From contig OZ316893.1 in the NCBI GenBank assembly GCA_973895155.1, positions 11,734,359 to 11,798,358 on the forward strand: a stretch of 64,000 nucleotides of DNA, read 5' to 3'. Positions 9,420 to 46,750 of this stretch are shown in pieces. A model generated the notes under the pieces. The model was not told the origin of the DNA, ran no database searches, and saw only the letters and a program-made list of their open reading frames with translations. This stretch comes from Marsupella aquatica (taxonomy: Eukaryota; Plantae; Marchantiophyta). Positions within the stretch are counted from its first letter, which is position 1, and each line of letters begins with the position of its first letter. A program made the position numbers and the translations under genes.

Positions 9420-9421
9420 AT

Positions 9422-15457: not shown

Positions 15458-15466
15458 AAGGGGGAG
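15458..15466 (+). promoter_or_regulatory. Polypurine tract of the Copia element
   Basis: AAGGGGGAG, 2 nt before the 3' LTR. Confidence 0.9.
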
Positions 15467-15468
15467 TT

Positions 15469-20708: not shown

Positions 20709-20709
20709 A

Positions 20710-21821
20710 CATGATAAATTTAAAGACTAGGGAATCAGAATTCATGCGGCTATAGATGGTGCTACTCATTATGTTGTATATATGAAGGTTTGTTTAAACA
20801 TTTAATTATCACGGACAATCTATGAACCATATAGAAATGCAATGGATAAATTTGGCCATCCATTGATGATAAGATCTGATTATGCTTCAAAGCATGTTTT
20901 AATAAGAGAAGATATTGAGCAAGCAAGGCCGAACCCAGGTGCAATTTGTGCAGGACCGTCCACTCATAACCAGGTAAACAAAATAATTCATTTTAAAATA
21001 TTTTACATTATCTGAATTTGAAAACATCATGTCTTGCACAAAACTTTTTGTATTTATTTTTCTCAGAGAATTGAAGCTTTCTGGCGCCAACTACGAGAAC
21101 AAGTAACAACATATTTTGAAACTGTGCTTGATACTCTATCCCAAGTTGAAGGATTCTTACAATTGGATAATCCTTGGCATCGCTCATCTATGGCAAATGT
21201 ATTTTTACCAACAATACAATTTTTGGTTAATGATTACATCGAAAACACTTGGAATTGTCATAAAGTGAGAGCTATAAATGAGAGAGGTTGAGACAGACCT
21301 TCTCACATACCAAAGCTTGCTTTTCAAGCTTGTGAGCGAATAGTTGGCCGTGTGCTACCGCCACCTTATGCTGAGGGAAGTATTGCACAAAGAGCTTATC
21401 CAACAACAGGTTTTGAACATTTTGCTACAAATTGGGTGAATCATACAAACCAGGGAGCATTTGAACTTGCTTTAGAAGACCTGGAGGATGAGGTAAGTAA
21501 TTTATTGAAGAATTATTGTAGTGTTATTTTAGTCTATTGTATATTCCTCAAATTATAATCTTATTAATTTGAAATGATGTTGTTATTTTGCAGGACCTCC
21601 GACATCTAAGGGATATGACCTATTATTCTAATCATGATCAATTTAGCATGATAAGTTGTAGATACAAGTTTCATGTTGCACTTACTCTAGAATGTAAGTC
21701 GTGCTTTGAAACAGGATTGTCCTTTGAACACTATTTCCATGACAAGTGTATAGAACGAGAGGTCCCTCCAAGTAGACTTGTTGCAATTAATCTATTGTAT
21801 CATACCTATCAAAATTCTTGA
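20710..21821 (+). pseudogene. Intron-containing DDE integrase-core transposase relic, IS3EU-like
   Basis: Reads HDKFKD*GIRIHAAIDGATHYVVY...FGHPLMIRSDY...GPSTHNQ, then a GT-AG intron at 20974-21066, then RIEAFWRQL...WNCHKVR. A second intron lies at about 21493-21593. In-frame stops are present. Confidence 0.75.
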
Positions 21822-23810: not shown

Positions 23811-24169
23811 TCTTGCTAACACGTGTTTGCTCACAAGGAGGATATGCATGGTCGAGGAGTTGGGGATTTCCCCACCTGACTTGGTGAATCAATGTACCAT
23901 AACAAAGAAGTGGGGATTCCGGACATCTTAGGGAATTTGGTTGAAAATACCCATGCTTTCCCATACATAACGAGGGATTTGATACTTCTAGTAGTTCAAC
24001 ATTTCCCTGGGGTAATTTGCCTATGTGTCCCTTGGGCGTGACATTTGGGGCGTTTCCCGTAATATACCCAACTACATAAGGGTTTAGCGCCTCCGCATTT
24101 CCCCACATTTGCGTGTTTATTTCTATAAGCCGGAGGCATATGGCATAATCCAGGTCCTTGGATGGTCGC

Positions 24170-27100
24170 GCTCTTCGCAACATCTGTGTGCATATTACCC
24201 GCATACCGTGGGGTATCGCTGGGGTATTTGGGATGTCAGCGTCCAATTGCCGCTCTCCAAGTGGCTTCGCTGCACTAGTAGAAATCGGGGTGTTATATGA
24301 TTAGGTTTTATGACTGCCCGTGACTTCTTGTGACTAAAGTTTGGGGGGTATCAAACCAGTCTTAATTTTGACATAGCGTCTTATTTAAAGTGACTGAAAT
24401 GGAGTGGTCAGATTTGTGACTAGGCTTTAAGACATATTTTGTGACTAATAATGACCAAATCCATACTAGCTTGGGCATTTTTGGATGAAACGTGCTATAG
24501 TCTACTATGCACAACCAATTAACACTTCTGAACCTTTAACATCAGACTGAATGGAAGATAATACAAACCCACCAGTCATATACAACATCAAAAACAGGAC
24601 AATAGAGTGAGATAAGTCAAGAGGGCTGCTTTATGTAACTCACAATTCAAAGCTTCCAACACAGGTGAATCTTCCAAGCTGAACCCTCTCTCATACACAC
24701 ATTACTTTCCTAGAGTTGGGACACTGCAGCTGCTGATCAACTTGGCTTGAGCAAAAATGCACATAGCTTCCACCAGCCAACAACATACAAGCCCCTGAAA
24801 CTGAAAATTTGCACAACTAAATAGCTGAAACTTGAGAGCTCACTCACTCTCAGGAGCTGCTCTCCTCCTTGTCTCTTCTCTACCTCCTATCATAGCATCC
24901 AATGCATCTAATTACTCTCTTGCAAAGCTTGAAACTGAAATTTACTTGGCTAACTTGCTGCTCATCGATTCTAAATGTCCTACTCACTACCTAGGTAAGT
25001 TCACACAAACCTCCATGCATCACTTCTGAACTGAATTTGCTTTTGGCCTCCATGGGTACCTCCTCCTAGCTCCTACCTTCAATTTTTACTCCAGTAGCTC
25101 CTCCCTGGTCTCTAGTAGTAACTCAGAAATTTCTGACATTGTATCCTGGGCACTCATTTTAGCCCTAAAATCTCTCTCGTGGTTTCCAATAGCACTCTGA
25201 TCTCTCCAATACTCAACCTTGGGGTGCCCACTTGCCCTGGTATCACTCCTTGGATCCCTGAGCAACACCCATGAGCCACTAGCAATGCACACAAATTTTC
25301 CAACTCAAATCAGTCACACTGTGCTCTCCCTGACCAGAACATTCAATCTTGCATCAATTCTTCTTGTCTCCTTGTCCTGCACCTCAATCTCCACTGAATG
25401 GCCACCAGGGACACCTCAACTACTCCCCTGGAATCCAGCAACCAACAAGGAAAGCCATGAGCTAGCCCTCATGTCAAGCAATAACTCAGATTTTGGCTTC
25501 TTCTCACTCAAATCCCTAATTTCCAGCTCCCAGATCTAACTCCTGTAGCATCCAACGATTCTTTTGAAGCCCTGATTCGAATGCATGTCCTCAAAGGGAA
25601 TCCAAGGACGATCCCAACCCAGCTGTCCAATCCAAAAATGATGGTAGAATGCCAAAGATACAGCTCCCTGACCATAGCACTAAGTTTGGCCTTTGTTATT
25701 CCAAATCCTGAACTTTCGGGCTAAACTTTGAGCTCCTTCAACTTTGAGCGGCTGATGGGAGGCTTGATTCCTGGCTCATAGCATCAAGGGTATCCAAAGG
25801 CGAATCCAATGCCCCAATCCAATCCAAAAATGATCAAGAAATGGCTAAGATACATCTCCCGATCTGTTGCAGCTTTTACCAAGGAAATTTTTGGATTCCA
25901 GGTCAAATGGCAACCTCTACTAGCTTAGATGTGTACCAAGAAAGACTAAATTGAAGCTGCCATCCGCGAGAGCATCCAAAGACAAATCCAACGCACCTAT
26001 GCAATGCAAAAATGAGCAATCAAAGCTAAAGATACAGTTCCTGATTTGCTGCTGCCTCCATAGCCACAAACCTTGGATGGTCTCTTGGATTCCTGCTCGA
26101 CCCTTGTACTTTAGGCTCGACATTTTCTCCCCCTTGGACCTTTCTCCACCTTGTTACTGGCCAGTAGCAAGGCCCTCTAAGTCCCCCTCTAAGCTAGCTA
26201 TTCAATTTAGCGGCACAGCCAAATTGGTGTAATCCCAAATTTCACTAATTCCTCTACATGATTGATCTCCAAGCAACTACAGCAGTTTGACTAATTACTA
26301 GAACTACTCCTGGCTCTTCCCTTACTAATCTAACACCAAGAAGAATTGTTATCCCAAGTCCTAAGTAGCTTAGTTTATCTATCCCGACACTTGTCTAAAA
26401 CTTATATTTAGACTATCAAATGTCAATACTAATATGGCCTGAAAAAAATCTTTCTTTTTCTCTCAACTAATCTTCATGTCACCTATTGCTAACTAAAAGT
26501 CAAGGGCATAGAGCTTAATTCCTATTTCTATTTAACCATTTCGTCACTTCTACCATTTCATACTTGCTCCAAAACAACGTCTCGACTACACTAATTACTC
26601 TCGGTGAAGCCTAAAAATCCTCTAACAGACCTGTGGGCCACTTACTAAGGGGTGCACACACCCTTCACAAAGTAGGAAGGAAACTTTTCATAGTCTTTTC
26701 CTAAACTCTGCTTCACTGAAGGTCTTTTGTAGTGTTCATGTGAACCACACCGCCACGGTAAAATGGAAGTTGCCCAAGTGGGAGTAACGGGATTAATCCC
26801 ACAATGAAATGTTCAAGCCAATTTATGACTATATTGGACGTGGTTGGACCAACTGCATTTATATTACTTAGACTAGGCATGACTAGGACTATCCACTATT
26901 CAAAATTTCAATGCTCTAGTGTCTTATGTAGACTCATTAGTGACTGTCAAGTCATGTGGGGTCACATCCATAAGACTGACGTTTTATTAAAGCACTCTGG
27001 TGGTCAAGCCTATCATAACTGGTCTGGTCATGAAATGCCCCAATTTCTACTAGTGCTGAGACCGTGTGCAGGATGATATGCATCTCCACCATCCAATTTT

Positions 27101-27563
27101 GTTGTGGCAAAGTGGGGATTCCGTGTGCATATTATCCGCATACCGTGGGGTATCTCTGGGGTATTTGGGTTGTCAGTGTCCAATTGCCGCTCTCCAAGTG
27201 GCTTCGCTTGCAGCCCTGGAGGTGTGCTGGATGATATGCATCTCCATCGTCCAATTTTGCTATAGCTAAGTGGGGATTCCGTGTGCATATTACCCGCATA
27301 CATTTGGGTATCTCTAGGGTATTTGGGTTGTCAGCGTCCAATGGCCGCACTCCAAGTGGCTTCGCTGGCAGCCCTGGAGGTGTGAAAGATGATATGCATC
27401 TCCACCATCCAAATTTCTTGTGATAAAGTGAGGATTCTGTGTGCATATTACCCGCATACCGTGGGGTATCGTTGGGGTATTTGGTATGCCACTTCCAATT
27501 ACCACTCTCCAGGTGGCTTTGCTAACAGCCCTGGAGGTTCGCAGGATGATATGCATCTTCACC
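24170..27563. repeat. 158-bp tandem (satellite-like) array interrupted by a CACTA element
   Basis: Anchor gtgtgcatatta at 27123, 27281 and 27439 (period 158) and at 24186, left of the CACTA insertion. Confidence 0.85.
24273..27055. mobile_element. Non-autonomous CACTA (EnSpm) DNA transposon
   Basis: Left end CACTAGTAGAAATCGGGG and right end CCCCAATTTCTACTAGTG; 3-bp TSD CTG at 24270-24272 and 27056-27058; subterminal (a/g)tgact repeats; no transposase recognised inside. Confidence 0.92.
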
Positions 27564-29261
27564 GTTATCGTGATTTTCTCTTAATATATAAAAAATTGTT
27601 TGTTTTAATATGTTATAGATTATATAAGTAGTTTAGTAGTTAGATTATTAAATTTAGACTTTATTAAGTTCTTTAGCTATAGTGTCGGACTATAATAATT
27701 CTACCAATGCACAGTAGTTCCACTTACGCATAGTAGTTAAACTACCAACTATAGTAATTCTACCAATGCATAGTAGTTCCACTTACGCATATTAGTTCTA
27801 CCAACTATAGTAATTCTACCAACGCACAGTAGTTCCACCAACGCATAATAGTTCCATCGACGCTTGGTAGTTTCACCTACTAAAAGTAGTTTCACCAACT
27901 ATGAACAGTACTAGCACACTCTTAGGTATTTGATGCTTGCCACTTGGCCTTCATCCGAGTGCTTGGGCTTGATCCATGCCCTCTTGGTGTGCACTATAAA
28001 TAAAGTGGTGAGGGGCACTCTCCCCTCATTTCGCAGTATTTATCATTCAAGGTTGTGAAGCTCTTTGTGCCTTAAACATAGTAGTAAGGCGTCCTTTGGC
28101 CCGGATAGCAAAGGAATGAGTGGTAGACTTATAGATGGGACCTTAGGAAATAAGGTTTCTTTGGGAATTTAGGGGTGGGGCGTCTTTTGGCCCGGATAGC
28201 AAAGGAATAGGAGAGCCATCATGAATCCACTATGAGAGAGAGTTATCCCTGATCTTCCCCTTCGTAATCCGTTTTTGATTAGAGTCCATCTTTTAGATAA
28301 ATCATCCATGAGGCAATATGTAACCTATCATTTTGGAGCTCAGTTTGCAACTGCTATTATGGTTTCTAACGAGGCAATAGTATACTCAGTAGTGTCGTAC
28401 CGAGAGGAGTGAGAGTGCATTATCTTTGTCCTTTATTGAAGTCATGGATCTGAATAGGAGTCCAGCTGATACTCTTGTTTCATTTTCTCTTGGAGATATT
28501 ATGATCGGTCAATTGCAAGCTTGAGGGGGGCAAAAAGGATATCCAAAATCTCCATCAAAAGGATTCCAGTCCTTCCCTTTTTTCAAGGGATGGACAAGGT
28601 GTTACACCTAATGGCCTGGATTGCTTTATTGAGAATGGAAGGTGGGATCTTCCCCTCACCTCCAGCAGTCCATTTGGAAGCGTGCCAGGAGGTTTGATTA
28701 GGAGTAGCGTCCATTAATGATTCAATGGTTAAGGACAAAATGACTTAAAAGGAAGTCCAAGTGGTAATGAATACCAATGAAACAAGACTTAAGTAGCGAT
28801 TTGAATTTCAAAATACTTAATTACGCGTAGACTAAGGAGTCCTAGCTAGGCTCAGCTAGGACTCTACGGAAGAGGCAGGGAGCCATGGGAATTGAAGGGT
28901 TGTCGACTATCTACGGTAATGTTTTGCGGGTTTGCTTCGGGAATTTTACCAGAGAGCTTCTGGCCTCAAGCGGATTCGACGAATTCTAAAGATCATCCAT
29001 AGAACTAGCAAAAAGCTTGGCGACCGTCTTCTGCAATGTAGGGTGTTCACCTCATTGGTAAAGGGTAAGCCGCGCGACATCTCAATGTTGTTAGACTCCA
29101 TTTTTTGTTTGCTTGAGTGCGGGTGTTCCCACATGAATTTCTGCCATCTAGAGCCTCATTTAACTTGGACCATGGCCTCTTTAACTTATGAAATATATAT
29201 TGTTTTGAACTTACGTTCAAAAGCTCATCGTGTTGTAGGAGCTACCATCAATTTTAGCGAG

Positions 29262-32200
29262 ATGCCACCAGTGCGGCGCCAAGCGGGGCGCCAAGATGAA
29301 TCCCAAGAAGAGAAAGAAAAAAGAGAACGGCATAATTTTCGAAGGCGAAAGTCATGGTATGACAAGCCTATTGGGTAGTGCCAAGAGGTCAACACTAAGC
29401 AATTGAATAGAGGCATTCAACCGGAAGACGGCAATAGTACGGGCCTGATTTTTGATGCCAAGCAGCAAGCTGATCAGTTGCTTCTTCATGCTCAGCAACA
29501 AGCTGATCAATTGCTTCTTCATGCTCAGCAGCAAAGTGAGGTATTATTAACTGTTGCTAGGAATGAGGCGCTGCGCTTACATGGAGAGGCAACCGCTCAA
29601 GCTGCGTTGAAGCTGCACAACATCAAGAATGACTGTGCTGAAGGCAAAGAAACATTGTCACGTTTGCGCTCTAGGATAGGGCAAAAGCAAGCCGCCCTTG
29701 AAGTACTGCGTGTGCGATTTGGTGAAGGAGCTCACTGTCTACAAAGCATGCAAGAGGACCCTCATTTGGCCAGAGAATTCAGGGAGAAAGATGCTGCTAG
29801 AAAACGAGCTGCATATTGGAGACTTCGGAGGATGAGAAGTTTAAGTTTGTCTAGTCATCTTGCTGAGGAAACGCCCAATAGAATGAGATGAGCGGTTGAT
29901 TCAGTGGTCTCCGAGGTAACTTCAGTCTTATTCAAAAAAATGAGAGATTTCAACTTATCCGCAAGGAAGGTAGTCCTAGAGCAATTTTGGTTGCATTCTT
30001 CATTGAGAGAATATCATCCTGCAGCTCTTGGGACCCCTAAGTTAGATGCATCTGTAGGAGCTACTATAACTGACCTTAGGCAGACCTTGCAAATTGTGAA
30101 GTGGGGTAAAAAGAAAGATCACTTGGCTGTAAAGCATTCAGTGTTGGTAGCTATGGTCGGACAGTCCACGGTTGGCAAGCGATATCAGTCCTCTTTAGCT
30201 AAGGCTTTTGGTATCAAGAGACACAACATTCAAAAAGCATCAAACATGCGGAAGCAGATAGATGAGAACCAATGTATAAAATACCCAATGGGGGAAAGGA
30301 AAACCAGGAGTGACAAGATTAGTGCAGAGGTGCGCAAGATTATTGAACTATTTTGGAGCACATACACTAGAATCTCACCAGGCAAGAAAGAGATAGCTAG
30401 AAAGCGACTTGGACCAAATCAACATGAGGAACATAAAGTACATTGGCTCGAGGATACAGAGGTAGGATATCCTCACATTGGCTACTTCAATTTCTTTGAG
30501 AGTTCTTAAAATTTTCTGCATTCTTTAGTCCCGTCTTCAGTTGTAGCCAACGATACAAATTTGAGAGCCTGAATTTGGGTAATCTATTAACACCCTATTG
30601 ATGTCTATTTACAGGTTGAATTTTTCTTCAAGTTCCAAGATTGGTGCAAGGCTGAGAACAATGCTGAAGGACCGCAGGCCTATAGTTATCTGAAACCGTT
30701 TTACATTCGAACCATGAAGGATCGAAATGTATGTTGCTGCAAGCAGCACATTGAAATGGACCTCCTGAAAGAGGCACTAAACAAATTCAGGAAGTTTCAT
30801 CACCCCTCTGAGTGTAGTTGTCAGTGTTGTACTTGTAAATCAGTGGCCATTCCATTAGGTGTTTCTTGTGTAGCTTCAAGGACACACATTACCTCTGTTC
30901 GAGGTTGGATGGAAGGTGCGCTGTGTAAGAAAACCGAGGGGCAGGTATGGCACAAGAAGGACTGTATTATGGGAGTTTGTGTAGATTGTGGAACGCTGAA
31001 TTTGGACTGGTGTCCATGGGAGTTGGATTCCACACAACAACTAACTATTAGTTGGCAGAGTTTTGAATATCAGGAGTTAGATGACAACTTACAAATGAAG
31101 AAAGCAAAGAAGAAGGGAAGTGATGAGAGTTCACAAAAAAAGTCTAAACGCTTGAGGATGGTGTATAAGACTACGTCTGTAAGTGATTTCAGGAACGTGG
31201 TCGAAGCTAGAATGAAGTCATTTGTTGTTCATGATTTTAGAGCTCGCTGGCAAAGTGACCAGTTTAGATTGTGTTTGAAGACGTTCCCAAGAGGAACCAT
31301 AGTGTCTTCAATTGACTTCTCTGACAATTACACTTTCAAGACGCAAAATGAGATTCAATCGCAACATTGGGACAACAAACAGATTACTTTGTTGATCCAT
31401 GTGACCTATAGACATCGAGAAGATGTGCACCAATCTATGGAGGCTGCAGTGGGACGGACAGTGAGTATGGCACAGAGTGAAGCTGGTGACAGAGATATCA
31501 TCGCCGACTATCATTTCTATATCAGTGATGATAATACTCACGACACCTTGTTTGTGCAGCATTGCATGGATGCTCATTACCATTGGATGAAGCAAGAGGG
31601 AATTGAATTCACTCAGCATTGGGTTTGGGTCAAAAGCAAGCTAGAGGGGTACCAACGGAGTCCCCAAGGACTAGCTCAAAAAGGAGAGTGAAAGGAGTAT
31701 AAATGTCATTAAGATTTAGCTGAGCACACTCCCAAAAAGGTTGGGCACACTTCCAAAAAGATTGTGCACACTTCCAAAAAGATTGGGCACTCTTCTTAAA
31801 TTCCGAAATATGTGGACACACTTCCAAAGATTTGGCATGCAAGATCTTACCTTTCAATCTCACCAAAACAATCCTGGCCATTCCATGTAACATTTTGGTC
31901 TTTTTGTCCTCTAGTGATTGCTTTTACCAAGGACCTATGTCCTTTTGGTGGAGAAAATGGTGATCCTTTCAGTACCCCTCTAGCTTGCTTTTGACCTTTG
32001 GTCCGATGGAGCTACCTCACAATTTAAGGCTTGTAGACCTTTCTACTACGTCTCAAGGTATTACAAGAGATTTGGTGCACGGATGAAATGGTTTTTCCAT
32101 GCTTCAGGACATGGAAAGGGTGTAGTTGTAAGTGTGGAACTCTACCTCCAATATTTGAATTCACTGTGTTGTTCTCATTATTTAGTTTCATATGAGCTTC

Positions 32201-33129
32201 TTTACCGTTATACAAGAACATTATTCTTTGGAGTCTAGTTGTATGCTTGTGTGACATTGAATGGACTTTTTCTGCATGGATAGGATGCCCTTGGAGGCCA
32301 CATCAAGAGCGGGATACAGAGAGAGCAGTTGAAGGGGACGCATGACTTTCGCTTGGAAAATGCTCATGATGTAGTTGCATTTTGCAAGGAGAAGTTTGCC
32401 ATTGGTATTGAGAGAGAGTATGGTGATGTTTTGCTTGTGAGGCGATTGTTTTGGGAAATAGGTGCTACAACTGTGAATCGGCACAAGAAATGGGACTGTG
32501 ATGCAATCCCAGGATGTAGAGCAATGCATTGTTTTGATGGATTTAGTAACCGACTTTCAACTCTGTTGCAAGTGAGGGAACTATGCTGTTTTTGTGCTTA
32601 CTGTCTTGATGAAGAACCACAAAAATGTGAGAATCGAGATCTTGTAGGACTGTATAAGCTTGAGATGGTGAAAGAGATTCTCCCTATTGATGTCAAAGCA
32701 GACCTTGAAGAAATGGGAGTTGGTGAAGGACTGTTGGAAGGGGACTCTGGGTCTTTGGCAGAGTTGGTGCAGTTGGGTGATTTCTATGCAGTGGAAGCAG
32801 AGCGTCCAAATCGTTGGGATGTAGACTTTTACATTTTGCAATGCGAGGAGGTCCTACATGATGTCACAGAGACATTTGTGGATGGATACGAGCAGGAACT
32901 TCAGCAGGGTGAACTGGTATTGAAGGGCAAATGGATGCAACCAGTTCCAGGATTGTGCCACACATATGTCTATTTAGACAAATCACCACCAAGTTTTAGT
33001 CTTGCAAAGTCAGTAATTCACATTCGATTTGGGCTAAGCCCATGTGATACTTCAGGACGGAAGGGTGGTAGCAGAAAGTTCAAATTGGACAAAGACACAC
33101 TTGCAGCAATTACAGATTCTTTGCGATGA
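29262..33129 (+). pseudogene. Sola2-type DDD transposase, 3 exons (29262-30461; 30615-32127 minus the MITE; 32284-33129), inactivated
   Basis: CCCKQH and CKK...C..C..CG Cys motifs; HDFRARWQ; IDFSDNY...QNEIQSQHW..QITL; ISDDNTHD; HWVWSDGATSQFK; FHASGHGKGVV|DALGGHIK. GT-AG introns 30462-30614 and 32128-32283 keep frame. Stops at 29376 (TAG) and 29889 (TGA). Confidence 0.85.
31628..31996. mobile_element. 369-bp MITE with TIRs related to the host Sola-like element
   Basis: Perfect 25-bp TIR GGTCAAAAGCAAGCTAGAGGGGTAC; 4-bp TSD TTTG at 31624-31627 and 31997-32000. Removing the element and one TSD restores W-V-W-S-D-G. Confidence 0.95.
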
Positions 33130-33379
33130 TGAGAGAATCGTCTATTGAGGTAAATTTCTGAATTGCCCAACTTCCTACTTTCCTTGCAATCTACATCAAC
33201 ACTTTCATGCACTAGCTTAACCATGCAGTGCAATACAATGTCATTGAGCTTTGCCCGTAACCCATCCTTAGTGCGTCCATGTGTAAGGATTATGTTCTTA
33301 TGTAAAGACATGTCCAAGGTGTCCTTGCTATTAGTAAGGACTCCTCTACATAGCGACTCCTTTTGGTTTGATTGCATGT

Positions 33380-33750
33380 CTAGGACTCGGTCATTTTACA
33401 AGGACTAGGACTGTGTCCTTGGACAAGGACAGAGTCATATTGGAAAGGACCATGCAAAGGACCATGTCCTTTCAAACGGACTAAAAAGGATTTGTGAAGG
33501 ACTATGTCCTTTGTGAAGGACACATTCAAGGACTATGTCCTTGACTAAGGACATATTCAAGGACTATGTCCTTGGTGCAAGTCATGGTAATTAAAGGACT
33601 ATGTCCTTGGTGCAAGTCATGGTAAAGGACTAGTTCCTTAGTTAATGACACAGTCCTTAACCGTAGAAAGGACCATACATGTCCTATATCCTTTTACATG
33701 GACTTCACAAAGGACTCTCCCAATGTATACTAGACTGTGTCCTTGTGTAT
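33380..33750. repeat. Array of AAGGAC/GTCCTT motifs (mini-hairpins) downstream of the transposase
   Basis: aaggactatgtcctt and variants recur throughout the interval. Confidence 0.8.
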
Positions 33751-34894
33751 TAAGGGTCTCGGAGATATATGTGGCCAGATAACTAGCGACAATGCTTATA
33801 TGAGAATTCTTTGAGCTGCTTGTATGAATGCGTTCTATTTTTTAGGTGGTTGGGCCTTTGTAAATTTGCAATCAGGTACTTATACAATTTGTACTGGTGT
33901 TTTGCGTTTTGAACACAGACTAAACCTTCAAGATACTTCGGACAGGACTACATCATGTAGACTAAGGGACACTCTGGATGACATACTCTAGATGGTAGAG
34001 ACTGAGTGACATACTCTAGATGGTAGACTGCCACTTTTTGGCACTCGGCTCACAAGATAATCATGTTTGTAATATTTCATGTTAATGGATCTGCATTTCA
34101 TCACTTAAGGAATTTTTCCTTCTCATTTCTTCAAGGGCCTTGTGGACATGATGTGCCTTGATTTCCTTGCGTGTGGTTGTACCTTTCTGTAAGCATATCT
34201 GAATCATGCACAAAGCAATTGTTCAGATAGAAACGGTTATTAAGTCTCTGTTTATGTCACACTTGATGACAATAGTACGGGACATCCATTTGTGGTCTCA
34301 AACTTTCTGTTGTCAGGTGTACTCTACAAAAGTATCAACTCAAAATAATCCCTTGGATTACACACTATTTCAGGGCGCTATTTTTGTACATTCAAGATTT
34401 TTGCAAGTATATACCAATCCACACTTGTCACTTCCAGCCAACTTCTTCCCACCGTATAGCTGCCTTCCAAGTTACAAAACCTCTGGTGCCCATTTGTCTC
34501 CTCGAGGATTTAGTGCAAAGAACACAGGTTTACTCACATGTCAATCAAGATATACCTCAACTAAAATATATCATCTAGACCACCTATTGAAGGAACTTCC
34601 AAGCTTCTCTTGAACAGTTGTGGTCTTCATGCCCAGAGACTTAAGTGTTAGAAAGGAACAAAACTGAAGTAACATATTGATCAGAGGCGCATCCATAGAC
34701 AAGAATTGAGGACTCAACACATATACAGAAGCTTGTGTTGAGACAACAACACTGTATTGATCAAGTACTTTACTGTATAGAGTTTGAGCTTGAAACAACA
34801 TCCAGTTCAGTGTGGATTTCATACCATCACTGGAATACAACAGTCTGCTACATACTATAGCACTCTAATTACTCCTCCGAAATACGAAAAGACT

Positions 34895-35572
34895 TCAAAG
34901 ACATGACGAGGTCTCCAGAAAAGTCCAAAATAGCACGTAAAGTCTCTGAAATGATGTTGCTCCACCATCTTTGGTGGTATCAAGACAATCACCAAAATTG
35001 GGTGAGGTACCGATCTTAGTCTTACTAACATTGGGCTTAAATTCATCTCTGTCCGAATGATTTATTATAGCGCGAGTAGCTTCATCTACCTGCAGATGCC
35101 CACGAGCCTTAACAATACTCACTGCTCGAAGGTCATCACTACGGCCTAACTTTGCCACACATGTGATGGTCCACAATTCACTCTGCACCTGCCCACAGAC
35201 TTCTTGCACCTTCTCTGGGCTACTCTCCCATAGCTTCTTAAAGGCTTCTCCCGACATCCCCAGTAGCTGCAACCCGCAATCTTCATTCACCAAAATAACG
35301 TAATCCCCGACTTGCACAGCAAAGCAGTACATAAAACTGCCAGTTCCAACACTACAGCAGACATGTTCGGATCGTCCTCGAGAACGAGGACCCACGGGAG
35401 ACTGAGGGTTCAATTTTCTCAGCCTGCGGGCATTCTTGCCCAAAGTGCATGGCTTACCATCACTCAACAAAACATTGCAGCCTTCATAAACAAATGACCC
35501 AGCACAAACTCCCCACATGTGGTCAATTTTGATATCCACCAGGGTGGTGAACTTGTTCTCAAGATTGTCCAT
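34895..35572 (-). CDS. RPA70 C-terminal-like zinc-ribbon OB-fold protein, putative ssDNA-binding, transposon cargo (3' boundary uncertain)
   Basis: FVYEGC(x9)C...HVCC...MYCFAVQVGDY..NEDCGLQLLGMSGEAF parallels RPA70C YxAC..C...C..C...RYILxxxIxDxTG...FxExGExILGMSAxEL. Acceptor-like tgcag just before the ATG at 35572. Confidence 0.6.
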   Translation of the reverse strand: MDNLENKFTTLVDIKIDHMWGVCAGSFVYEGCNVLLSDGKPCTLGKNARRLRKLNPQSPVGPRSRGRSEHVCCSVGTGSFMYCFAVQVGDYVILVNEDCGLQLLGMSGEAFKKLWESSPEKVQEVCGQVQSELWTITCVAKLGRSDDLRAVSIVKARGHLQVDEATRAIINHSDRDEFKPNVSKTKIGTSPNFGDCLDTTKDGGATSFQRLYVLFWTFLETSSCL

Positions 35573-35669
35573 GATCTGCACAAAGATAATATATGAAGGG
35601 TTACATATCAACTATTGGTCACCGGATGGTTTCTCTTGCAAACTAAAGAGGATCTCAATCCGGCACCCT

Positions 35670-36020
35670 GACTCAAGCACCTCAAGTCCTGACTAAAGGA
35701 GCCCCAGTCTTGACTAGAAGACAATACTGATCATCAGTTACCCGTAGTCCTGACTAAAGGACTGGAGTCCTTGAGTCAGGACCGGGAGTCCTAACTAAAG
35801 AACCACGAGGACCGGAGTCCTGACTCAAGGACCCCGAGTCCTGACTCAAGGACCCGGAGTCCTCACACAAGGACCACAATTCCTGACTCAAGGACCCCGA
35901 GTCCTGAATCAAGGACCCGGAGTCCTCACACAAGGACCACAATTCCTGACATGAGGACCGTGACCCCCAACTCAAAGAGTCCTGAAGAGTCTTGACACAA
36001 GGACTTGGAGTTACTGACTC
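35670..36020. repeat. Tandem gagtcctgactcaaggacc-type repeats between the cargo genes
   Basis: Repeated 18-20-bp units, including a higher-order duplication of about 60 bp. Confidence 0.8.
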
Positions 36021-36286
36021 CACGACCTACAAGTAGTGCAAATCATACAGAGCAATGAACATAAGCTATGGAGAGAATCCAAAAAGGAACTTACACAGAG
36101 CTCAATACTGGGACTTTTGGCCCCGATGTGCATGAGTTTGCTGCACAAAACAAAAACTAAGTTAAAGCAAACCTTTCTTGAATGCATCTTCTAACAATTG
36201 TCACCATAGCTCTCCTCACTACAAACTGCAGATGCACAATTTACATTGGAGAGGGCAATGATTTTTCCTGGATCATAACTTGAAAG

Positions 36287-38995
36287 TCAATCATCCACAG
36301 GAAGTTTCCTTTGGGAGGAATGAGCGGGAATAGTCACAGTAGGTGAGTTTCCGCCAAGTGCTTGACTCAAGAATCCAAGAGGTGTCTTCACCAACACCAA
36401 ACGCTTATAATTGACATGAACGCCACACTCAGGGGAAAAAGGTATTGTATCTGGACTCGACAACGTTTGGCTACAGTTCACCTTCCTAGCTGATTCTTGT
36501 TCAACCTTTCGTTTCTTCCCCGACTCCCCACCCTCTACTTTTGGTGTCACCAAAGGTATCTTAGACGATCCGTCCTCAGGCTCATCATCGCCTATATCAA
36601 TGATGGAAGTGGCCTCCATGGCGCTCAAATACATGAGAGCTTGGCCGTGAGAATCCCCCTGAAAATACAATCACCGAATAATTACAGGAGTTGACAAAAT
36701 CATACGGGTGCAAACATAACAGGCAAAAATGTGTCTACAAACTATAAAGAGATGTGCAGGCACAAATAATTCAGAAGATTGCTTTACAAATTCAAACCTG
36801 TGATTGAGCTGTTTGAACTATCCGCGAAACCTCTCTTCGTCTTCCCAAACATCTGCCCTTCTTCCCATACATATCTTTTAAGTCTGTTATGTAAGAATGC
36901 CGTGATTCAACCGGACTTGGTGATGCATATGAACTTGGTAAACCCCAACTTCGCAACCAATCATCACTGAAGGCATAGGAGCATGCCAAACACTTAGCAC
37001 TCTGTTCTGATGAACCAAGTATTGGAAATAGACAACTCGGATGGTAGGTGTGCCCACAAGATGCTGGAATCCAGTTGAAGCAATGAAACCCATTGCAACA
37101 CACTGGACAAACAGTAAGTGAAGCTTGGACTCCTACAGATCGACAAGAAGTAGGAATAAAACGAGGAGCTAACACAGGGCAAGGATGCTTCAAAACTTTG
37201 TTTAAAATGGAATGTTCCTGAGATTGAGCTTCCAGAAGCTCCTCCACCCCCTTAACGACAATCTCCCTTTCTTCCACGACTTTGGTCAATCTTGCCACCT
37301 TGCTTGGCAAGTCTTTGAACATATGATCTTTGTCGGTGTGGAGCATCCTCAACACAGTCAACTCATCTGAAATTCATCTTGACCGGGAGTTCAACATCTC
37401 AATTGTGGCCTCATGCTGCTTCAGATCAGTCTGAAGGTGTGTCAAGTAATCGTTGGGGGTCTGTCATAAAGAATAAAAAACAGAGTGTCATTCATCAACT
37501 CACAAATCATATTAGCTGCAAGCTACTAATCTCAGATTTCCAACGTTAGTGAAGAGAATAAATAGAAAGTGCGATAAAAACTAATGTGGAAATTGATCAG
37601 AGTGAAACCTCATCGTCTTCACATTGGTTGCCTTCTTCCAACTCAATGGCATTCGTGGTTTCTTCATGCTTCTCTTCTTCATTTGATACTGAATCCTTTA
37701 CAAGCTTCAACTCCTCCTCTAGTTTGCAAATTTGATGATGAATCCGCTGCAGTGCACTTCGCCGGTCGCACTCTGAAGATTTCAAATTTTCCAGGCTTCG
37801 AAGAAGTTTCTGAACATCTTCGCGGGCCTCTCTTACTTGGTTCTTACTCCATGACATTTCTGATTCAAGCATGGATAGTAACAAGGCACGAGGGGGGGTA
37901 CTTGGCAACTGCGCAAGAGTGGAAGGACTTGGCCGCACCCACGGAATAGGGGAGGCAGATGCAGTACCAAGTAGCTCAGCAGGAACTTTTTCGAGGGAAA
38001 GAACATCCCATCCGCTCTCGGGGATTGGAGACTTCATCGTTGGCTCTTTCAAAGAGAGGCTTGAAGGAACTCGGGGAGGAACTGCCTCATGAATTGCATC
38101 CTCAATAACTTGTGCATCTGCGTGCTTATAGACACGACCAGTCTTCCTTACACAAGGGGGCCCATTAGGCTTACCTTTGCCTTCTCTATGCCACTGAACA
38201 ATCTGGCCTTTCAACTTAGATGCAGTGTATGCGGCCCAATTAACTGTCCTCCCCAACACTCGCTCAGCATACACTCCCTTAACAAATGTATGTGCCTTGG
38301 AACACTCCATTGACCGGCTTCTCATATCCATCGACAACTTGGGATAAATGTAAGACATCCTCTTGTGGCAAGCCTGTGCAACTACCTAGTTTGTAACCGC
38401 TCCGTCCCTTATCTCCAAAGCACGTGACTAGCATTTCCTCACTGATGTCAATGATTCTATGGAGATTTTCGCCTTCATTCGGAAGGCCAAACTGGGTAGC
38501 AAAGAAGTGAGCGTCCTTGTAAAAATTGGCTGGATCCCATTCGTTGTCTGTCGCCTCTGAAGCTGGCTTCACTCTACCTTTAGATTTCTCAATAGATGCT
38601 ACCGCTCGAGCAACACAATCATCTGAACTGGGTTTTCCTTTAGAGAGTTTGACTAACACAGACCCGGCTGGATCCCATTCGTTGTCTGTCGCCTCTGAAG
38701 TTGGTTTGACTCTACCTTTAGATTTCTCAATAGATGCTACCGCTCGAGCACCACGATCATCTGAACTGGGTTTTCCTTTAGAGAGTTTGTTGACTAACAC
38801 AGACCCGGTTGAGCGTTCTTGAGGAGAGTTTTCTAATGACCCTACACCCTCACCTCCATCAACGGGCAATGGAAGTGGGTATCCATCAAAACAACTATGA
38901 AAAGTCCTGACTAAATCTGATGAGAGTTCTGGTAAATCTAAAGTAGAGAAGGTTACGTCAAATATCGATGAAAGGAAGTAGAATAGGTGGTGCAT
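36287..38995 (-). pseudogene. Spliced cargo gene: helical domain, coiled coil and RING-H2 finger (5' end uncertain)
   Basis: Exons about 38995-37609, 37460-36798 and 36658-36287, joined by phase-0 GT-AG introns. CPVC(x13)CGHTYHPSC(x13)CLAC is C3H2C3. Frameshift near 38300 and in-frame TGA at 37374-37376. A 46-47-aa tandem duplication lies at about 38529-38808. Confidence 0.72.
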
Positions 38996-41900
38996 TAGGT
39001 ATCAAAGTTACAAGCGTACCCTCAGTCTGGCCTGCGGAGCACATCACGCTCATGAAGTAGCACTTCCACCCAAACCTGTGCAAACTCTCCATGCCCACAA
39101 CATGTCAAAGACCATGTATGCAACATTTGCACCATCGTTGATTTGAAAGTTCTTGAGTTTACAAGCACCTATCGCCGAACGCGTTGCGACTGTGAGGAAT
39201 ATGAAGGTCTATCTAGAATTGGTTGAAACTGCAACAAAGCAACATTTGCTTACCCGAGCTCTAAACCAATGTCACCAAACCGCACCACCTTAGAAAAGAT
39301 TTGAAAGAATAGAGAGTCCGCAATGCTATATTTCCTTCAAGCACTAAAATTGAAACATTCGGCGGAACTCCTCAACGTTCATTGTCGACATTTACTGTCG
39401 ACATCCACTACTTTGCGATATTCAGTCTCGTTCAGTCTCGCCACCATTGTCATTGACAATCCCCTAAGCCTCCCAAACAAACTACTTTGCGACACTACTC
39501 GGCGTTCACTCCCCCCGCCACTGTCGTTGAGTATCCCCAAAGCCTCCCGAACATCTGGAAATCTAAGGCACAGCAGGCCCCAGCGGCCAATTCCTCACCG
39601 TTGATGGAAACCCGCGGATGGCACGGAAGCCGCGCGGCTATTTCAAACTTGGCGGCGATTTCAAACTCTGGGAATGACGGAACTGGTCCCCTCCTTCTTC
39701 TCTGTGGAAGGACCTTAGTGGCTAGAAATGATGCGATGTCCTTTTGCGTCATTAATTCCTTCACGGGGTTGAAGTCCTTGGTGGCCCCACTATCCTTCAA
39801 TCTTGATCGTTGATCTTCATATCACCACAAGGACTACCTCTCCATTTTGGTGATCCTTTTTGCGTCCTTTTGCCCCCCTCAAGCTTGCAATTGACCGATC
39901 ATATGTCGTAAGAAAACTAATTTTTGTGATGTGTTGGTCCGCAAGTATGGTGAAATAGGGTTTAATAGTATATTAGTTTCACCTGAACCTTTCTTAATAC
40001 CCACTACTTTTGTTACTAGAATTATCATTTTAGTTTTAGTGTAAAACTTATGGACATGCAAGGTTAACTTCATAAGAGCCAACATGCTCTTACCAAAAAA
40101 CACGGTCACCGGACATAAGTGGCGACCATACTAGGGAATCGCTGGATTTTGAAGTTAGCTTGTGCATGTTTAAGTTCTAATGGATGGAGAGAGATATGAT
40201 TTTGGAACTTTGAGTCTTTAACTTGTTTATATTATTAAGTCAAGAGGGAAGAATTCCAATCATGGGAACTGAGATGAATCCAACTGACATGGAGAGGTTT
40301 TCATCTTTGATTGTTGCTTACTTACATGGAATGAAGAAGAAGGAGATGGAGGAGAATAAGAAGAAATAGTTGCTTGGTAGGATCACAAAGTACCTACACT
40401 CGGTTCTTACATAGCAAGGAGAATTTGATGGGCGGAATGCAACCAAGTAACTCAAGGGGTGCTGGACGGAGGCTACAGTTCATAAGATGGATGCAGAAGT
40501 TGCAATCAAGGAGTTTGTATCTTTAGTAGAACCTGAACTCAAGGGAATTGTTACTACCTTGATAGATGGAGCTACTGGAGAAAAGGCATGGAAGGTCTTT
40601 GAGTTGAAAATGAAATAAGAATTTCAGCTTGAAGATCCATATCGGGTTACTCAAGCATCTTTCCTTGATTGGATGACCGATAGAAACAAGAAGTTGGGAC
40701 CTCAAGAGCTGATAAGGGAGTTTACAAAGAAGTTCAATCAGCTTCCTGAGATTGGTTTTGAAGTTATCAAGGTACAGAAGGCTACTTTACTTAACCAAGC
40801 TGCTGATGAGAAACTTCAAGATGAGTTAGAACTTGCTCTGGAATTGATGAACCCAAGTCGTGGAGCCAGTCCACCAACTTGGGAGGAGATTGAGATTGTT
40901 GTGCTTAGGGTCAGCCAAAAGCATAGAAAAAAGAAGCTGAGTCATGAAGGTGCTCTAGATGCGGTTGCACCTGTGACTTCTATGAGGAGAATGGAGAAAA
41001 TGAAGTCAACAATTGGTAGGGGTGAGAAAAGCATGGACAAAATGGATGAGTTGTCTGAACTCATGAAAAATCTTACTATTCTTGCCACCCAAGCCTTCGA
41101 GCAGATGGGAGAAGGTGCATCAAAACCAGCGCCAAGAGGTGGTCCAGGAGCTGGGAGTTTCATTGGTGGAGCAAGGAGTTGGAATTGTATTTGGTGTGAC
41201 AGCAAGGAGCACTCGAGCCGTGAATGCGGGGAGCTTTTTGTTGCTCTGAGAGAGAGTATAGTCAAGTTCATTGATCATGATGGCATAAGAAAGCTTGTTT
41301 ATCATGATTCAAGATAACTTATTCCAGTAAACACAAACAAGGGCGGTATGAAGATGTTGGTGGAGAGAAGAATAATTGAACATCATACTTCAACCATTGC
41401 ATCAGCTTTTGGAGATCAGGATGAGCATGAAACAGATGTTTACACCTCTTTGGGAGTTCTTCATCAGCAGAGACAAACAAGAAGAGACTAGCAGAGTTTG
41501 TAAGGTGGAAGTCAGGTTGGAGTGATCCAGTATTGATTTCTTCTTTCACTATAGAAGTGGGATCTCTATGGGATTCTATGGTGGAGGAGAAACAAAAGTT
41601 GTCGGAACCTTTGGAAGAACGTGCTAAAGGAAAACAGAAGGTTGAGCCTGGACCCTCTATTTTGCAGCCATCATCAGGAGTCCCAACAAGGAGGAGTGTT
41701 CAATTTGAAGATAGAGGAAGTACAACAAAGGAGCCTACTTTGACTCCTTCATCCTCAAAGGAGATGGAAGTGGTAAAAAAAGAAGGTGGAAAAGAAAGGA
41801 CCTGGTTGGGTCCTTGGAAGAGATGTTGAGTAGCACATTGCGTATGATCAAGTTGCTGAAAAGTTTTGGAAAGCGAAGGTGAGTGGAGTCACCAATGAGG

Positions 41901-44214
41901 AGTTTTTTGCTTGCATGAACTCAAAGGCTCAAGATGCATTACTTGCAAAGGTGAAACAAAAACACTTTTACAAAGAAGGACCTCATGCCTTGGGAATGAA
42001 GGTTTTTTCTGATGTTGATGAAGATGGAGAAGGTTCAATTGTTTCTCAAGCCAGTGTGGAGTGTGAAGTGTATCAAGTGAATGCGGAGAAGATCCCTAGA
42101 CCACAGATGCTAGGGTCTTCAACAAAGGAAGTTCCTGAACCAAAGATGTCAAGAGTTGAGGTATTGGAGAGGTGAAAACCATTGGTGAAAGCAACAACAG
42201 GATTTGAGTGACCCAGGATATGACAAAAATTAGTCGAGAAGAGGTGCTCAAGGCCTCACAAAGTGTGTGGGTCATGTGTGCTTCAGCTATGAAGAATCCT
42301 GATTCAGGAGACGACAAGGAGTCCATCTTGGAGCCATTTTGGGCAAGAACTTGCTCAGTTGTGAAGGTAGAGCTTGTAGGAATGGAGGGCAAAGCTTGAG
42401 CATTGATTGACACAGGATCTGAGGTGAATCTGATGTCAAGAAGCATCTATGATCTTGGGCAATGGATGATTGATTGTGATACTCAATGGTCTGTCAACTC
42501 AATCAATCGTTCAAAGAATATACTTTGGGGAGGATGCCCTATCTGAGTATCAGTGAAGGTTGGTCATGTGATAGAACCAACTAACATCTTTGTGCATGAT
42601 AGCTTGCCCTATGATCTCATTCTAGGGCAACCTTATATTACTCAAACTCGAATGAAGTACACTTAGATCCTACCAGATGGCACTCATATGGCAAAGGTGA
42701 GGAATCGAGATGAATTGCAAGTTATCCAATTTTTTGTAGTGAAACCTGGACATTGGAGGAATCGAAAGGAGTTGAGAGGACCTGAACCCAAGGAGGGAAA
42801 TGAGGATTTCCGAAAGGCATCTCGTTAAGCAATTCGGGAAGGTGGGGCGCCATCGCCAATGACCCGCTAGTGACTTGGAATGTGAATAGTTTGTTGGCAA
42901 GCTCATTTGAAGGTGAAAGTTTACATTGTCAAATTTCTTATGTGAAAGTGTGCGAAGCTACTAAAAAATTCAAACAGAAAATTGCATGGATTGAGGATAC
43001 TATGCAAATACATGGATTGCCTAGAGGAAAGTGAAGAGATTGAAGACCTTCTAGATGAAGAAGTAGAAGTGTTTTTGAAAGAAATAATTGAAGGTCTTTC
43101 AGGGAAGAAAGCTCATATAGAAATCAATCATGAGCTGTATGGCGAGTTGTCTCAATTTGTTGAGGACAACACCAAGTACAAAACAGTGGAGAAGAAAGTG
43201 AGACCAACAACAATTCCTTTATCTTTGGATGCTAGGGAGATTTTGGAGAAGGCTGGTAAAGAGACCAGTCTTAGAGATCGGACTAAGATTGGCCATAAAT
43301 TCACGAAGGAGACCCTTAATCAACTAAGGATTGGTGATAATGGGTTGCTGACAAAATAAGAGAGAGAGGAGTTTTGGCAAATGATTGGTGAGCATGGTAA
43401 GGCTTTTGCCTTTTGTCCTGAAGAGATCATGGGATGTGTGGATCTTAGTGTTGTTACTCCTATGGTAATTTTCACTGTCCCACATGTTCATTGGGACTTG
43501 AAACCCATTCCAATGCCCAAGGCTTTGTTACCCAAACTTATTGATCTATTGAAGGAGAAGCTTTCCACTAGGATTTTGGAAAGAGCAGATGCACCTTATT
43601 CTAATCGTTGGTTTATCATTCGTAAGAAAAATGGTAAACTTAGATTTATTTAGGACATGCAACCACCTAACAAGGTTACTATTTGCAATACTAGAATAGG
43701 ACCTATAGTAGATGAGTTTGCGGAAGAATTTGCTGGTAGAGTGTGACGGAGTTTCCGTCACCAAAATCCTCAATAATTGTCTACTGGGTTGTGCCATGTA
43801 AATAACCATTGTAAATAAGCCGTTTTTTTAATTTTTGAGTTAATTCCGTTCTTTCAAGTTGGTGCTACCAAGAGGACTTTACTTTATTTCCTTCTCAAAA
43901 TTGTTCTAAATGGTCACGACAACCTTAGGGGGGCAATGGTGGCCTGGCCATTTTGCTTGAACCATTGTCAAGTTCCCCCTATAAGTCCAAGGGGTTAACT
44001 TTTCTTTTTGGGGTTAAATGGGTATAACCACAACAAGGGCCAAAAGAAGAGAATGAGTTCTTTTGAGAGGTTAAAAGTTGTTGGAGTAAGGACGCCACCT
44101 GGCATCTCCATAAGGTAAGTCGGGGCGCGGGAGGCAACCGAGGCGCATGGCAAGAAGGAGCTGGGGGGATTAAACCCCTCTTGAGGAGCCCTCTTAATAG
44201 GGCCCCGCGAATGA

Positions 44215-44450
44215 ACAGAGGAAAGGAGGAGCGCCGCGAGGAAAGAAGGAGCACCGCAAGGAAAGGAGGAGCGCCGCGAGGGAAGGAGGAGCCCCGCGAG
44301 TAGGCGAGGCACAGCTGCAAGGAAAGAAGAAGCGCCGCAAGGAAAGAAGGAGCGCCGCGAGGAAAAGAGAAGCTCCGTGAGTAGGCGAGGCGTATCCGCA
44401 AGGAAGAAGGGGGCTGCCAGGGCGTAGGCGAGGCGCAGCCGCGAGGAGGA
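44215..44450. repeat. About 21-bp purine/GC-rich tandem repeat (ggaaaggaggagcgccgcga)
   Basis: Multiple adjacent variant copies. Confidence 0.8.
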
Positions 44451-44827
44451 GTAAAGGGGGTGTCGGCAAACAAGGTGCAACCGCGAGGGAAAATTAGCAA
44501 AGGAGCCACGGGGTTTCCTTTTTTTCCTATTTTCTCACTCCCTCTCTTTTGCAAGACTAACTCTTGCCGAAAGCAAAAACTCGGGCTCTCTCTCAACTCT
44601 TGCCGAAAGCTCTCTCCACATTTTGCAATTATTCTGGAAGCTCTTTCTCATGGTCAATTGTTGGGGCTTGTTGGCATGATTCTTCCAGGCATTAGCGGCA
44701 GCAGCACGGAGTGGTTTCTGGGGGAATTGAGGGTAATTGATTGATTGGGATACGGGGGCCGTTTCGGGCCAGGGAATTGACATTGCTACGGGTGATGGGA
44801 ATTGGTAATTGAGGATTTGATTTCTGG

Positions 44828-46750
44828 ATGTTGGATCAACCGGAGTTTAGTGCGGCACGCATTTGGAGATACAAGGCTGCTTACCGTGACTACATTGAGA
44901 CATTGATTGCAAGAGAGAGAGAAGAGAGAGAAGCTACGATGAGTACTGGACTGGCGGCAAGTTCCGCACCGGTGAGTAGGAAGGTTTTCCGTCAAATTTA
45001 TCCCAAAACCTCCGCCAAGGTGATGGAGGATTGTGGGAATATTTTTCTGGCCACCGGGCTCACGGAGTTCATGAAGGTGGAGATTACAATCCCTTCGGGG
45101 AAGAATTGGAACATTGAGGCCGGGATGGAGTTACGCACGGAAGGAATCTACTTTGAATGTCTCCAACGGGTACTGCCCCATGTGGAGTTAGCTAAGCTTC
45201 TATTTCTGGAGAACCAACAATTCTCATTCACACCTCAAAACATAAGGGGAGAGCTCACGTTGACAATGGTGGCCGGTTGGGTGATTAATCCCACCTCCAC
45301 TACTTCCATTCCTCTTTCCGCCGTCAAGGATGCTGAGCACAAGGGATTTCTGGCCAAGGTTCATCAATGGATCCTTGGTAACGTGCAATCCGGGGTGGTG
45401 AATGGAGAGAATTTCGTGGTAGCTATGGACATCCAGCCCATGTGTACGGATGGTGGTACTACGGGTTGAAGAAGCTATTGGACGCCGATCCCGGGAGTGT
45501 GAAACCAGGTGGGGCTGTACATTTGATGGGGTCATTTTTGCTGGCCAGAGCAAAAGGGTGGATTTTTTCCTAGGGACAGGAAGACTCTGGATCATCCCTT
45601 ACCACGGAAATCAGGAGTATTGCCACTACCATCTTGGGGAAACTAACGGAGGGATCATCGTCGGCGGTTGGGAATGATAATAGAGAGGAAGAAAACCAGG
45701 ATGAGGACTCCACATTGGAGTGACTTGAATCACTTGTGGAAGATCCGGAGGAGCCCCTGGTCTACGACATTCCTGATGTCTACCTAGCGGAGTTACGGGA
45801 TTTCCGGCAGGGAGTTCATGAGGGACTCAAGCTAGTCCACGCATTGAGAGATTCTCTCAAGTAGGCCACCGCCAGAATAGAGACTTTGGAGCACAGTGCC
45901 CTATCTATGAAGGAGGTGATCAAGGCCAAGGAGGAGGCCATTCATGAGAAGGTTAATCTTCTCCAAGCAGCTCACGTAGAGATCTCCAACTTGAAGGGAG
46001 CCTTGTCCACCAAGGCCAAGGAAGCGGAAGAGGTTGGAGTATTGAAACAAGCATTGGCCAAAGAGAAGCAGAATTCTGGAGAGGTGGTGGAGTTAAGAGC
46101 CCAGGTGGGAGCACTGCGGAGTCAAATGGTGATCTTTGAGACAAGGGCTAAGAGGAGTGAGGCCTTGAGTCTGGGGAAACGGAAGAGCCCCTGCACACCT
46201 AGCTCCACACTTTCCCCGAATTTGATCTCCAGGGCCATTGAGATGGTGGTAAAGGAAGTCAGTGGGAAGTATGGACCCCTGTTGGATGCCGCCAAGAAGA
46301 GTCAAGAGAAGAGCAAGAACTTAGAGAAGAAGCTCAGGGAGGTACGTAAATCGTTACAGGAGGCTCAGGTCAACGCGAGGACCCCAGGGATGCCACCGTG
46401 ATCTTTCACCCCTGGGACTCCCATAGCCACCGGGCAGGTTTTACCGTTGGAGTTCCGGTCCGGTGAAGAGGCTGCCTTATGGAAGGACACCATTGGTGAG
46501 GGGTACATCAAAGCATGGCAGGCCTTGGCCATTTGAGGAAGCAGGGGAGCACTAGCACAAGGAGTACCCCGGTGAAGAAAAAGAGGGGTGAAGTGGCACT
46601 CACTCCAGTGGAGAGTGATGAGGAGGCCCACTCACGGGGCTCAAGCCAGGGCACCGTGAGTGAAGAGGAGGAGAATTAGAGTGGTCGTACGGATGTGGTT
46701 GTACGGCCCCTTGACTTTTCCACTTTTTTGTGAGGGGTCACTCACGGGCT
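44828..46750 (+). pseudogene. Decayed accessory ORF (helical N-terminus and coiled coil) inside the 4-kb insertion; 3' end approximate
   Basis: ORF pieces 44828-45469 and 45886-46401 (E/K/L-rich heptads) separated by stops and a frameshift; coding-like sequence continues past TGA 46401. Confidence 0.55.

Follow-up and report, generated by a model that had tools for sequence, protein, structure and literature searches.

The Sola2 group belongs to the Sola superfamily of transposons and was reportedly described by Bao et al. in 2009. Large members are in print from dictyostelids, where the Sola2-Fanzor1 elements DFa-1/2/3 and PPa-1/4/5 are about 12 kb long, carry a second multi-exon gene and have exchangeable 3' halves (PMC3627910). 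Sola elements, given without a subgroup, have also been reported in Physcomitrella and Azolla (PMC10741241, PMC6786969). The presence of Sola in plants and the carriage of a passenger gene by Sola2 are thus already known. Here we describe an 11.4-kb element (positions 28507-39896) in a 64,000-nucleotide stretch of the liverwort Marsupella aquatica (contig OZ316893.1, positions 11,734,359 to 11,798,358; hereafter the window), which we regard, with little reservation, as a real element of the Sola2 type. It shares with known Sola2 elements a DDD transposase with the motifs DF[AS]ENY, SDD..HD, SDG..Q[FY]K and HGK..D.GG, N-terminal Cys-rich blocks, terminal inverted repeats (TIRs) and a 4-bp target-site duplication. 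Unlike them, it falls in a bryophyte branch, has a spliced transposase gene, ends in GGTCAA, is associated with duplications that are not AT-rich (GATC, TTTG), and carries two accessory genes, here termed B and C, that face the transposase gene. The Sola2-Fanzor1 elements are comparable in size and in having a second multi-exon gene, but their passenger is Fanzor1 (PMC3627910) and not a protein with the gene B N-terminal domain and RING or an RPA-like protein; they also soften the contrast, drawn in an initial annotation of this window, with Sola2 elements that typically encode a transposase alone. The combination of a Sola2 transposase with facing N-domain/RING and RPA-like genes was not found in the literature covered, which did not extend to Repbase, Dfam or most subscription journals, so that the family may already be catalogued; a term search of the main text of the Riccia and Apopellia genome papers did not return the word Sola.

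The borders of the element are defined by two perfectly inverted 29-bp TIRs (28507-28535 on the plus strand and 39868-39896 on the minus strand), which begin with GGTCAA and are immediately flanked by GATC at 28503-28506 and 39897-39900. Deleting the element and one GATC yields a gapless alignment of the flanks with a paralog that lies inverted near 61.7-62.5 kb of the window, has a single GATC and is 85% identical to the host repeat over 820 columns; if both GATC copies are retained, a 4-bp gap appears against the paralog. The same empty site, joined as 28502>39897, is present in public contigs of runs X1, X2 and X5, and in run X3 a flank differing from that of the window begins exactly at 39896, which may stem from a full or from a deleted copy. 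The TIRs, the 4-bp GATC duplication and an empty site in a paralogous long terminal repeat (LTR), as originally annotated, were thereby all recovered. The LTR label for the host repeat stands because the repeat terminates in CA and is followed by a sequence which we take to be a primer-binding-site-like word, and by a presumably gag-like open reading frame (ORF) with a CCHC knuckle. A reading of the ends without any duplication was ruled out, since a miniature inverted-repeat transposable element (MITE) with the same termini carries a 4-bp duplication of its own. The host 5' LTR corresponds to 27567-28506 with 39901-47000, with gag-like and unassigned ORFs downstream; at 61709-62834 the family is represented again, by a solo LTR in inverted orientation. 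The target site (28500-28506 plus 39897-39903) forms a 10-bp palindrome around GATC; the target of the MITE is non-palindromic.

The transposase gene lies on the plus strand and is predicted, as are all splice models discussed here, from GT-AG signals and collinear homologs. Exon 1 (29262-30461), with an inferred start codon, contains stops at codons 39 and 210 and is 44% identical to Calypogeia P0004 over 169 aa. Exon 2 (30615-32127) is split by the MITE into a 5' part (30615-31627), encoding a Cys-rich region, the first catalytic Asp in DFSDNY and the SDD-x-x-HD motif, and a 3' part (32001-32127), encoding the second Asp in SDG and the HGKG motif. Exon 3 (32284-33129) supplies the third Asp and a C-terminal Cys cluster. 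The spliced, MITE-free model comprises 1061 codons including the two stops, and places D634, D740 and D781 in DFSDNY, WSDG and HGKGVVD, respectively, as expected from the three-exon DDD transposase first proposed. When compared by eye with the Sola2 alignment in print (PMC3627910, additional file 10), the DDD motifs, SDD-x-x-HD and the Cys blocks of the N-terminus all agree with it, as does the spacing of about 40 residues between the second and third Asp (D-x40-D), so that the assignment to Sola2 is borne out feature by feature. The transposase has no model in Pfam or NCBIfam. A GRG...CYC form has been given for Sola2 termini, and those of the present element are GGT...ACC. Published dictyostelid Sola2 ends, however, begin with GAA, GAG or GTT (PMC3627910 supplements), which argues that GRG...CYC is not a fixed feature of the group and removes the sharp contrast that had been drawn from the GGTC ends. 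The perfect 29-bp TIRs lie within the reported range of Sola TIR lengths, 11-1124 bp, and the 4-bp duplication that is stated for Sola and Sola2 (PMC3627910, PMC10741241) is seen both as GATC with its empty site and as TTTG around the related MITE.

A search with exon 2 matched 1690 cluster representatives (E at most 0.001), and the 13 matches that were looked up include proteins from Calypogeia fissa (the best, 49%), Riccia sorocarpa, Ceratodon purpureus and two Klebsormidium species. In a 71-row tree, made by a quick method and free of named Sola references, the transposase of the window grouped with the Calypogeia protein and a Logan protein (99), within a 55-row clade (97) to which the named bryophyte proteins and each of the 45 metagenome loci in the tree belong. 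This suggests a lineage centred on bryophytes, with its closest named relatives in liverworts and mosses, and by itself would point to a bryophyte, likely a liverwort, as the host. The metagenome locus L007 and the Riccia model P0235 have the first intron at the same position; the second intron is absent in many relatives. The Klebsormidium transposases (P0053 and P0100, one of them from a transcriptome) are Sola2-like too, and the lineage may predate land plants.

The copy in the window is a dead member of a recently active family. Apart from the two transposase stops it is interrupted by the 369-bp MITE (31628-31996), which has 25-bp TIRs related to the ends of the element and a TTTG duplication, and which disrupts exon 2 within the WVWSDG motif. 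These related ends and the 4-bp duplication of the MITE independently confirm the termini and the duplication size of the large element. Contigs of sister copies cover both the transposase half and the accessory half of the element; they show no splice joints, which speaks neither for nor against expression. Sister copies without the MITE (joint 31623>31997) occur in runs X1, X2 and X5. Contigs of X1, X3 and X4, mostly 95-100% alike, are free of this copy's breaks in the accessory genes: the 4-bp insertion at 38297 is missing in X1, X3, X4 and X6, the stop at 37375 in X1, X3 and X4, the deletion at 38876 in X1, X4 and X6, and the deletion at 34937 in X1 and X4. The two transposase stops are not among the differences listed. 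This copy differs from its sisters by about 1%, and of its 45 differences from X1 between 34.3 and 39.9 kb, 35 are transitions in which the window has the A or T; with their CG/CHG context these point to methylation-driven decay. Inactivation, as noted at the outset, is thus evident from the stops, the nested MITE, the frameshifts and the CG/CHG decay. Contig depth in X1 (about 100 for the transposase contig and 81-127 for the listed accessory contigs) is not taken to reflect copy number. The family of the MITE has a high depth and the same terminal grammar as the element, and in a further short relative the similarity is limited to the final 44 bases of the right end, with loose ends at 39853. 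Differences of 4 bp from sister contigs occur at 29193, 33674, 34028, 35029, 35982 and 38297; such indels may be footprints left by elements that duplicate 4 bp of target, and the one near 38297, an insertion, might mark an excision.

The convergent spliced genes annotated on the minus strand were recovered. Three pieces (38282-39001, 37600-38385 and 36795-37373) are collinear with a single Riccia protein and hence constitute one gene, B. Its predicted exon 1 (37609-38886) covers the N-domain and the start of a coiled coil, and is frameshifted near 38876 and 38297, though in no copy but this; exon 2 (36798-37460) covers the remaining coiled coil and a RING-H2 domain, with a stop at 37375 in this copy only; and exon 3 (36287-36658) encodes an acidic/basic tail, whose start is echoed in Calypogeia P0208. 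With the letters of X1 the three exons give an open frame of 769 aa, which is 35% identical to P0208 over 536 aa. In order, it consists of the N-domain (about 140 aa), a long coiled coil and the RING-H2. The N-domain is the most conserved part and is predicted to be folded (predicted local distance difference test, pLDDT, of 84-97 in a Riccia homolog), yet it has no match in Pfam, NCBIfam or PDB sequences (none below E 0.29) and no usable match in the Atlas, and Foldseek and VIA searches with an 819-aa Riccia model returned coiled coils only. The C3H2C3 ligand pattern of the RING is present in the exon of the window and in 21 of the 100 family proteins examined, and the RING profile matches solved E3 RINGs such as RNF4 and RLIM (best E 3e-7). 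The variable N-terminus of gene B contains a 138-bp in-frame duplication (38528-38808); the variable regions of VANC proteins likewise contain tandem peptide repeats (PMC5735166).

Gene C (34870-35572, minus strand) is predicted to encode an RPA70C-like protein with a Zn-ribbon/OB-like region. It is frameshifted near its end in this copy; with the letters of X1 it forms an open frame of 234 aa, the length seen in sister copies, whose C-terminus then agrees with its homologs, and it is 51% identical to P0001 over 233 aa. The family alignment conserves C, C, H and C residues, half of the protein is beta-rich, and three of eight family members match PF08646 at E of at most 1 (best 0.04). A first structural model had a pLDDT of 33; a second reached 58-76 in the C-terminal half only, and searches with it were filled by coiled coil. 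Some Riccia gene models and the Calypogeia model fuse B and C, whereas others consist of C alone, one of them directly adjoining a B model (R1sor_005406, R1sor_005407). These C-alone models and the conserved Met at the start of gene C make two tandem genes the better reading of the sequences. An RPA-profile match in the metagenome locus L030 (E 0.0065) was treated as noise.

Genes of this type recur in relatives of the element. We fetched 80 metagenome loci (the best 80 of 334, representing 51 clusters) by their transposase alone. The exon of the window encoding the RING matched seven of these, in six of which the match lay downstream on the facing strand. Downstream sequence of 4 kb or more is available for 18 locus clusters, and with iterated profiles an N-domain or RING was found in nine of these, eight in facing orientation and one on the same strand, while a tenth, shorter cluster has a RING gene on the same strand. 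These profiles were partly seeded from the tested loci, and the N-domain of L007 was added by hand at E 0.4, as it directly precedes a RING exon. As a control, 102 kb of upstream sequence gave no match, whereas 139 kb of downstream sequence gave matches in 10 clusters; were position random, the probability of this would be about 0.004. The carrier loci are spread over several sub-branches of the transposase tree. In a separate nine-row branch two loci instead have, in the position of the RING gene and on the minus strand, a facing NIF/FCP1-like phosphatase gene (L010:2767-3972 and L011:5322-6104; E 8e-15 and 4e-6) with DLNG at the DxDx motif. The same-strand RING/N-domain genes lie at L029:3658-4917 and L049:14882-15319, and orientation is accordingly not fixed.

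Among proteins, the N-domain profile retrieved 56 sequences, namely 51 from Riccia (on seven chromosomes), one from Calypogeia and four unnamed; together with P0158, 21 of the 57 have a RING and 16 the C domain (two weakly). None of the 80 metagenome loci, which are more distant, yielded gene C, and it was seen only in liverwort-type sequences; a search of viral_contigs found no relative. The link of the accessory genes to the transposase is weak in Riccia: no listed accessory locus tag adjoins the two known transposase tags (014670, 024812), and the one model in which an N-domain is joined to a piece of Sola2 exon 1, both on one strand (P0235), may reflect a nested insertion. The Calypogeia transposase and accessory models lie on different chromosomes. 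Nevertheless, we consider it very probable that the accessory genes are intrinsic to the lineage. The distinct multi-gene land-plant lineage initially put forward therefore holds in being bryophyte-centred and in its recurrent extra genes, but these seem to be intrinsic rather than cargo, and gene C was seen in the liverwort type only.

One alternative is that the genes are passive Pack-type cargo, in which host fragments were captured once and carried along without benefit. Half of the related loci are without the gene, as such a history would allow; but in sister copies the multi-exon frames are whole and uninterrupted, they are conserved at 25-50% identity and in a fixed position across liverwort classes and moss-type elements, and the 56 N-domain matches (in a search limited to 255-2000 aa) include no single-copy host parent, the same whole gene instead recurring in distant elements. 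This protein conservation already suggests a dN/dS well below 1, and we regard passive cargo as very improbable. A role of gene B as a self-regulator, whose RING would mark the transposase for degradation or whose convergent transcript would dampen transposase expression, thereby limiting harm to the host, is in keeping with the RING-H2 and with the facing orientation in eight of 10 clusters. It too seems improbable, as the genes of L029 and L049 are on the same strand, the 3' ends in the window are about 1.7 kb apart, and neither gene C nor the repeat arrays described below would be explained.

The non-coding DNA of the element is rich in the word AAGGAC, with 39 occurrences in 4.2 kb against 2.7 expected. 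It is concentrated in two internal arrays of differing period, one at 33330-33760 (periods of 25-35 bp) and one of 21-bp tandem units that lies between B and C (35666-35990), and is found more thinly at both ends, where the terminal 500-bp bins have four and five copies of AAGGAC/GTCCT against a background of 0.86; the bin of the MITE is also enriched. On balance we favour the explanation that the window contains a dead Sola2-type copy whose two conserved facing genes constitute a motif-targeted anti-silencing helper; that countering silencing is the main role of these genes is a more tentative proposal, made by analogy. The model for it is VANC, encoded by the Mutator-like VANDALs; we know of no VANC protein with a RING. 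VANC proteins target tandem motifs in Arabidopsis VANDAL elements (PMC5735166). In the proposed mechanism the transposase would excise the element at its TIRs and insert it with a 4-bp stagger, as established for Sola. The N-domain of gene B would bind the AAGGAC arrays, as VANC does its motifs, the coiled coil would dimerise the protein, and the RING would bring the ubiquitin machinery to chromatin proteins at the arrays, while gene C would bind single-stranded DNA at sites of excision or repair.

Several observations weigh against this explanation. No sequence similarity to VANC was shown, and binding and demethylation are here proposed by analogy. In canonical RING E3 ligases a Pro after Cys7 and a linchpin Arg after Cys8 are important, and neither occurs in any of the 21 complete RINGs, which weakens a canonical E3 role; of the putative E3 ligase initially suggested, the C3H2C3 RING-H2 in a 769-aa protein stands, and its activity is plausible, not assured. 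For gene C, the match to PF08646 scores 16.4 bits (E 0.008) against a curated cut-off of 28.5, the sole PDB match is 4gnx_C (E 1.5), which we take to be a fungal RPA70, the top Atlas matches, although all of the RPA clan, reach 0.85-0.87, and two RPA-family profile searches of PDB recovered no RPA chain. The single-stranded-DNA-binding protein proposed before thus keeps three weak pointers to RPA70C, all below family thresholds, and goes unconfirmed by the profiles. This copy has itself undergone heavy methylation (of 30 listed C>T changes, 25 are in CG/CHG, versus 28% of cytosines), and the arrays show no retention of CpG (observed/expected 0.30-0.41). Tandem duplication inflates the AAGGAC counts, the word also occurs near the ends, where the transposase could bind, and it is not clearly enriched in the spacers of most relatives: among 13 regions from relatives a related top word was found in few (L074, L052 and, weakly, L007). 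Furthermore, a gene of the B type is absent from half of the 18 loci, no pair of TIRs with a duplication was found around the related loci of at least 7 kb (n=23; only short AT-rich chance pairs appeared), and no contig spans a whole second element, so that the transposase and both genes were not directly seen in one independent copy.

A rival explanation is that the accessory proteins act as transposition cofactors like TnpA of CACTA elements, with silencing not their target: gene B or the transposase would join the ends via AAGGAC, and gene C would process or repair DNA ends. The clusters of the motif in the terminal bins and in the MITE agree with this, the long coiled coil would fit a scaffold, and the atypical RING is possibly structural. 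Plant Helitrons, moreover, carry and use an RPA70 homolog (PMC4344730), although they are rolling-circle elements, whereas here a single, weakly matching C-terminal-type domain is present in a cut-and-paste element. Most AAGGAC motifs, however, lie mid-element and far from the ends. Neither gene looks obligatory, given the NIF phosphatase-like gene of the sister branch and the many loci without gene C, and animal Sola2 elements reportedly move with the transposase alone. We therefore judge a cofactor role rather unlikely.

Extending the anti-silencing explanation, one might envisage the bryophyte Sola2 elements as an ancient modular counter-silencing kit, combining a new DNA-binding domain and a RING with an RPA-like protein in liverworts and a C-terminal-domain-phosphatase-like protein in the sister branch, where the RING fusion would read the element's own motif arrays and ubiquitinate silencing chromatin there; this broader proposal is speculative, and we hold it with considerable doubt. 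If true, plants would have a second and independent system that counters silencing with sequence specificity, in this case via ubiquitin. To our knowledge only VANC has been shown to counter silencing sequence-specifically in plants, and few plant DNA transposons are known to us to keep helper genes over long evolutionary time. With a domain that is conserved, unnamed and folds well, and that is linked to a RING and motif arrays, the survival of transposons under DNA methylation would become directly testable in Marchantia or Physcomitrium; the domain might also serve as a chromatin tool that can be targeted. In the annotation of Riccia, dozens of gene models labelled "RING-type" probably belong to transposons.

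Elsewhere in the window there is a young copia-type LTR element (9087-15801) with gag/pol domains and LTRs that are 99.4% identical. The window also contains a 158-bp tandem repeat family (24127-24284 and 27064-27563), a reverse transcriptase fragment (19948-20793) and a fragment resembling a long interspersed nuclear element, with a 69-bp triplication (57683-58468).

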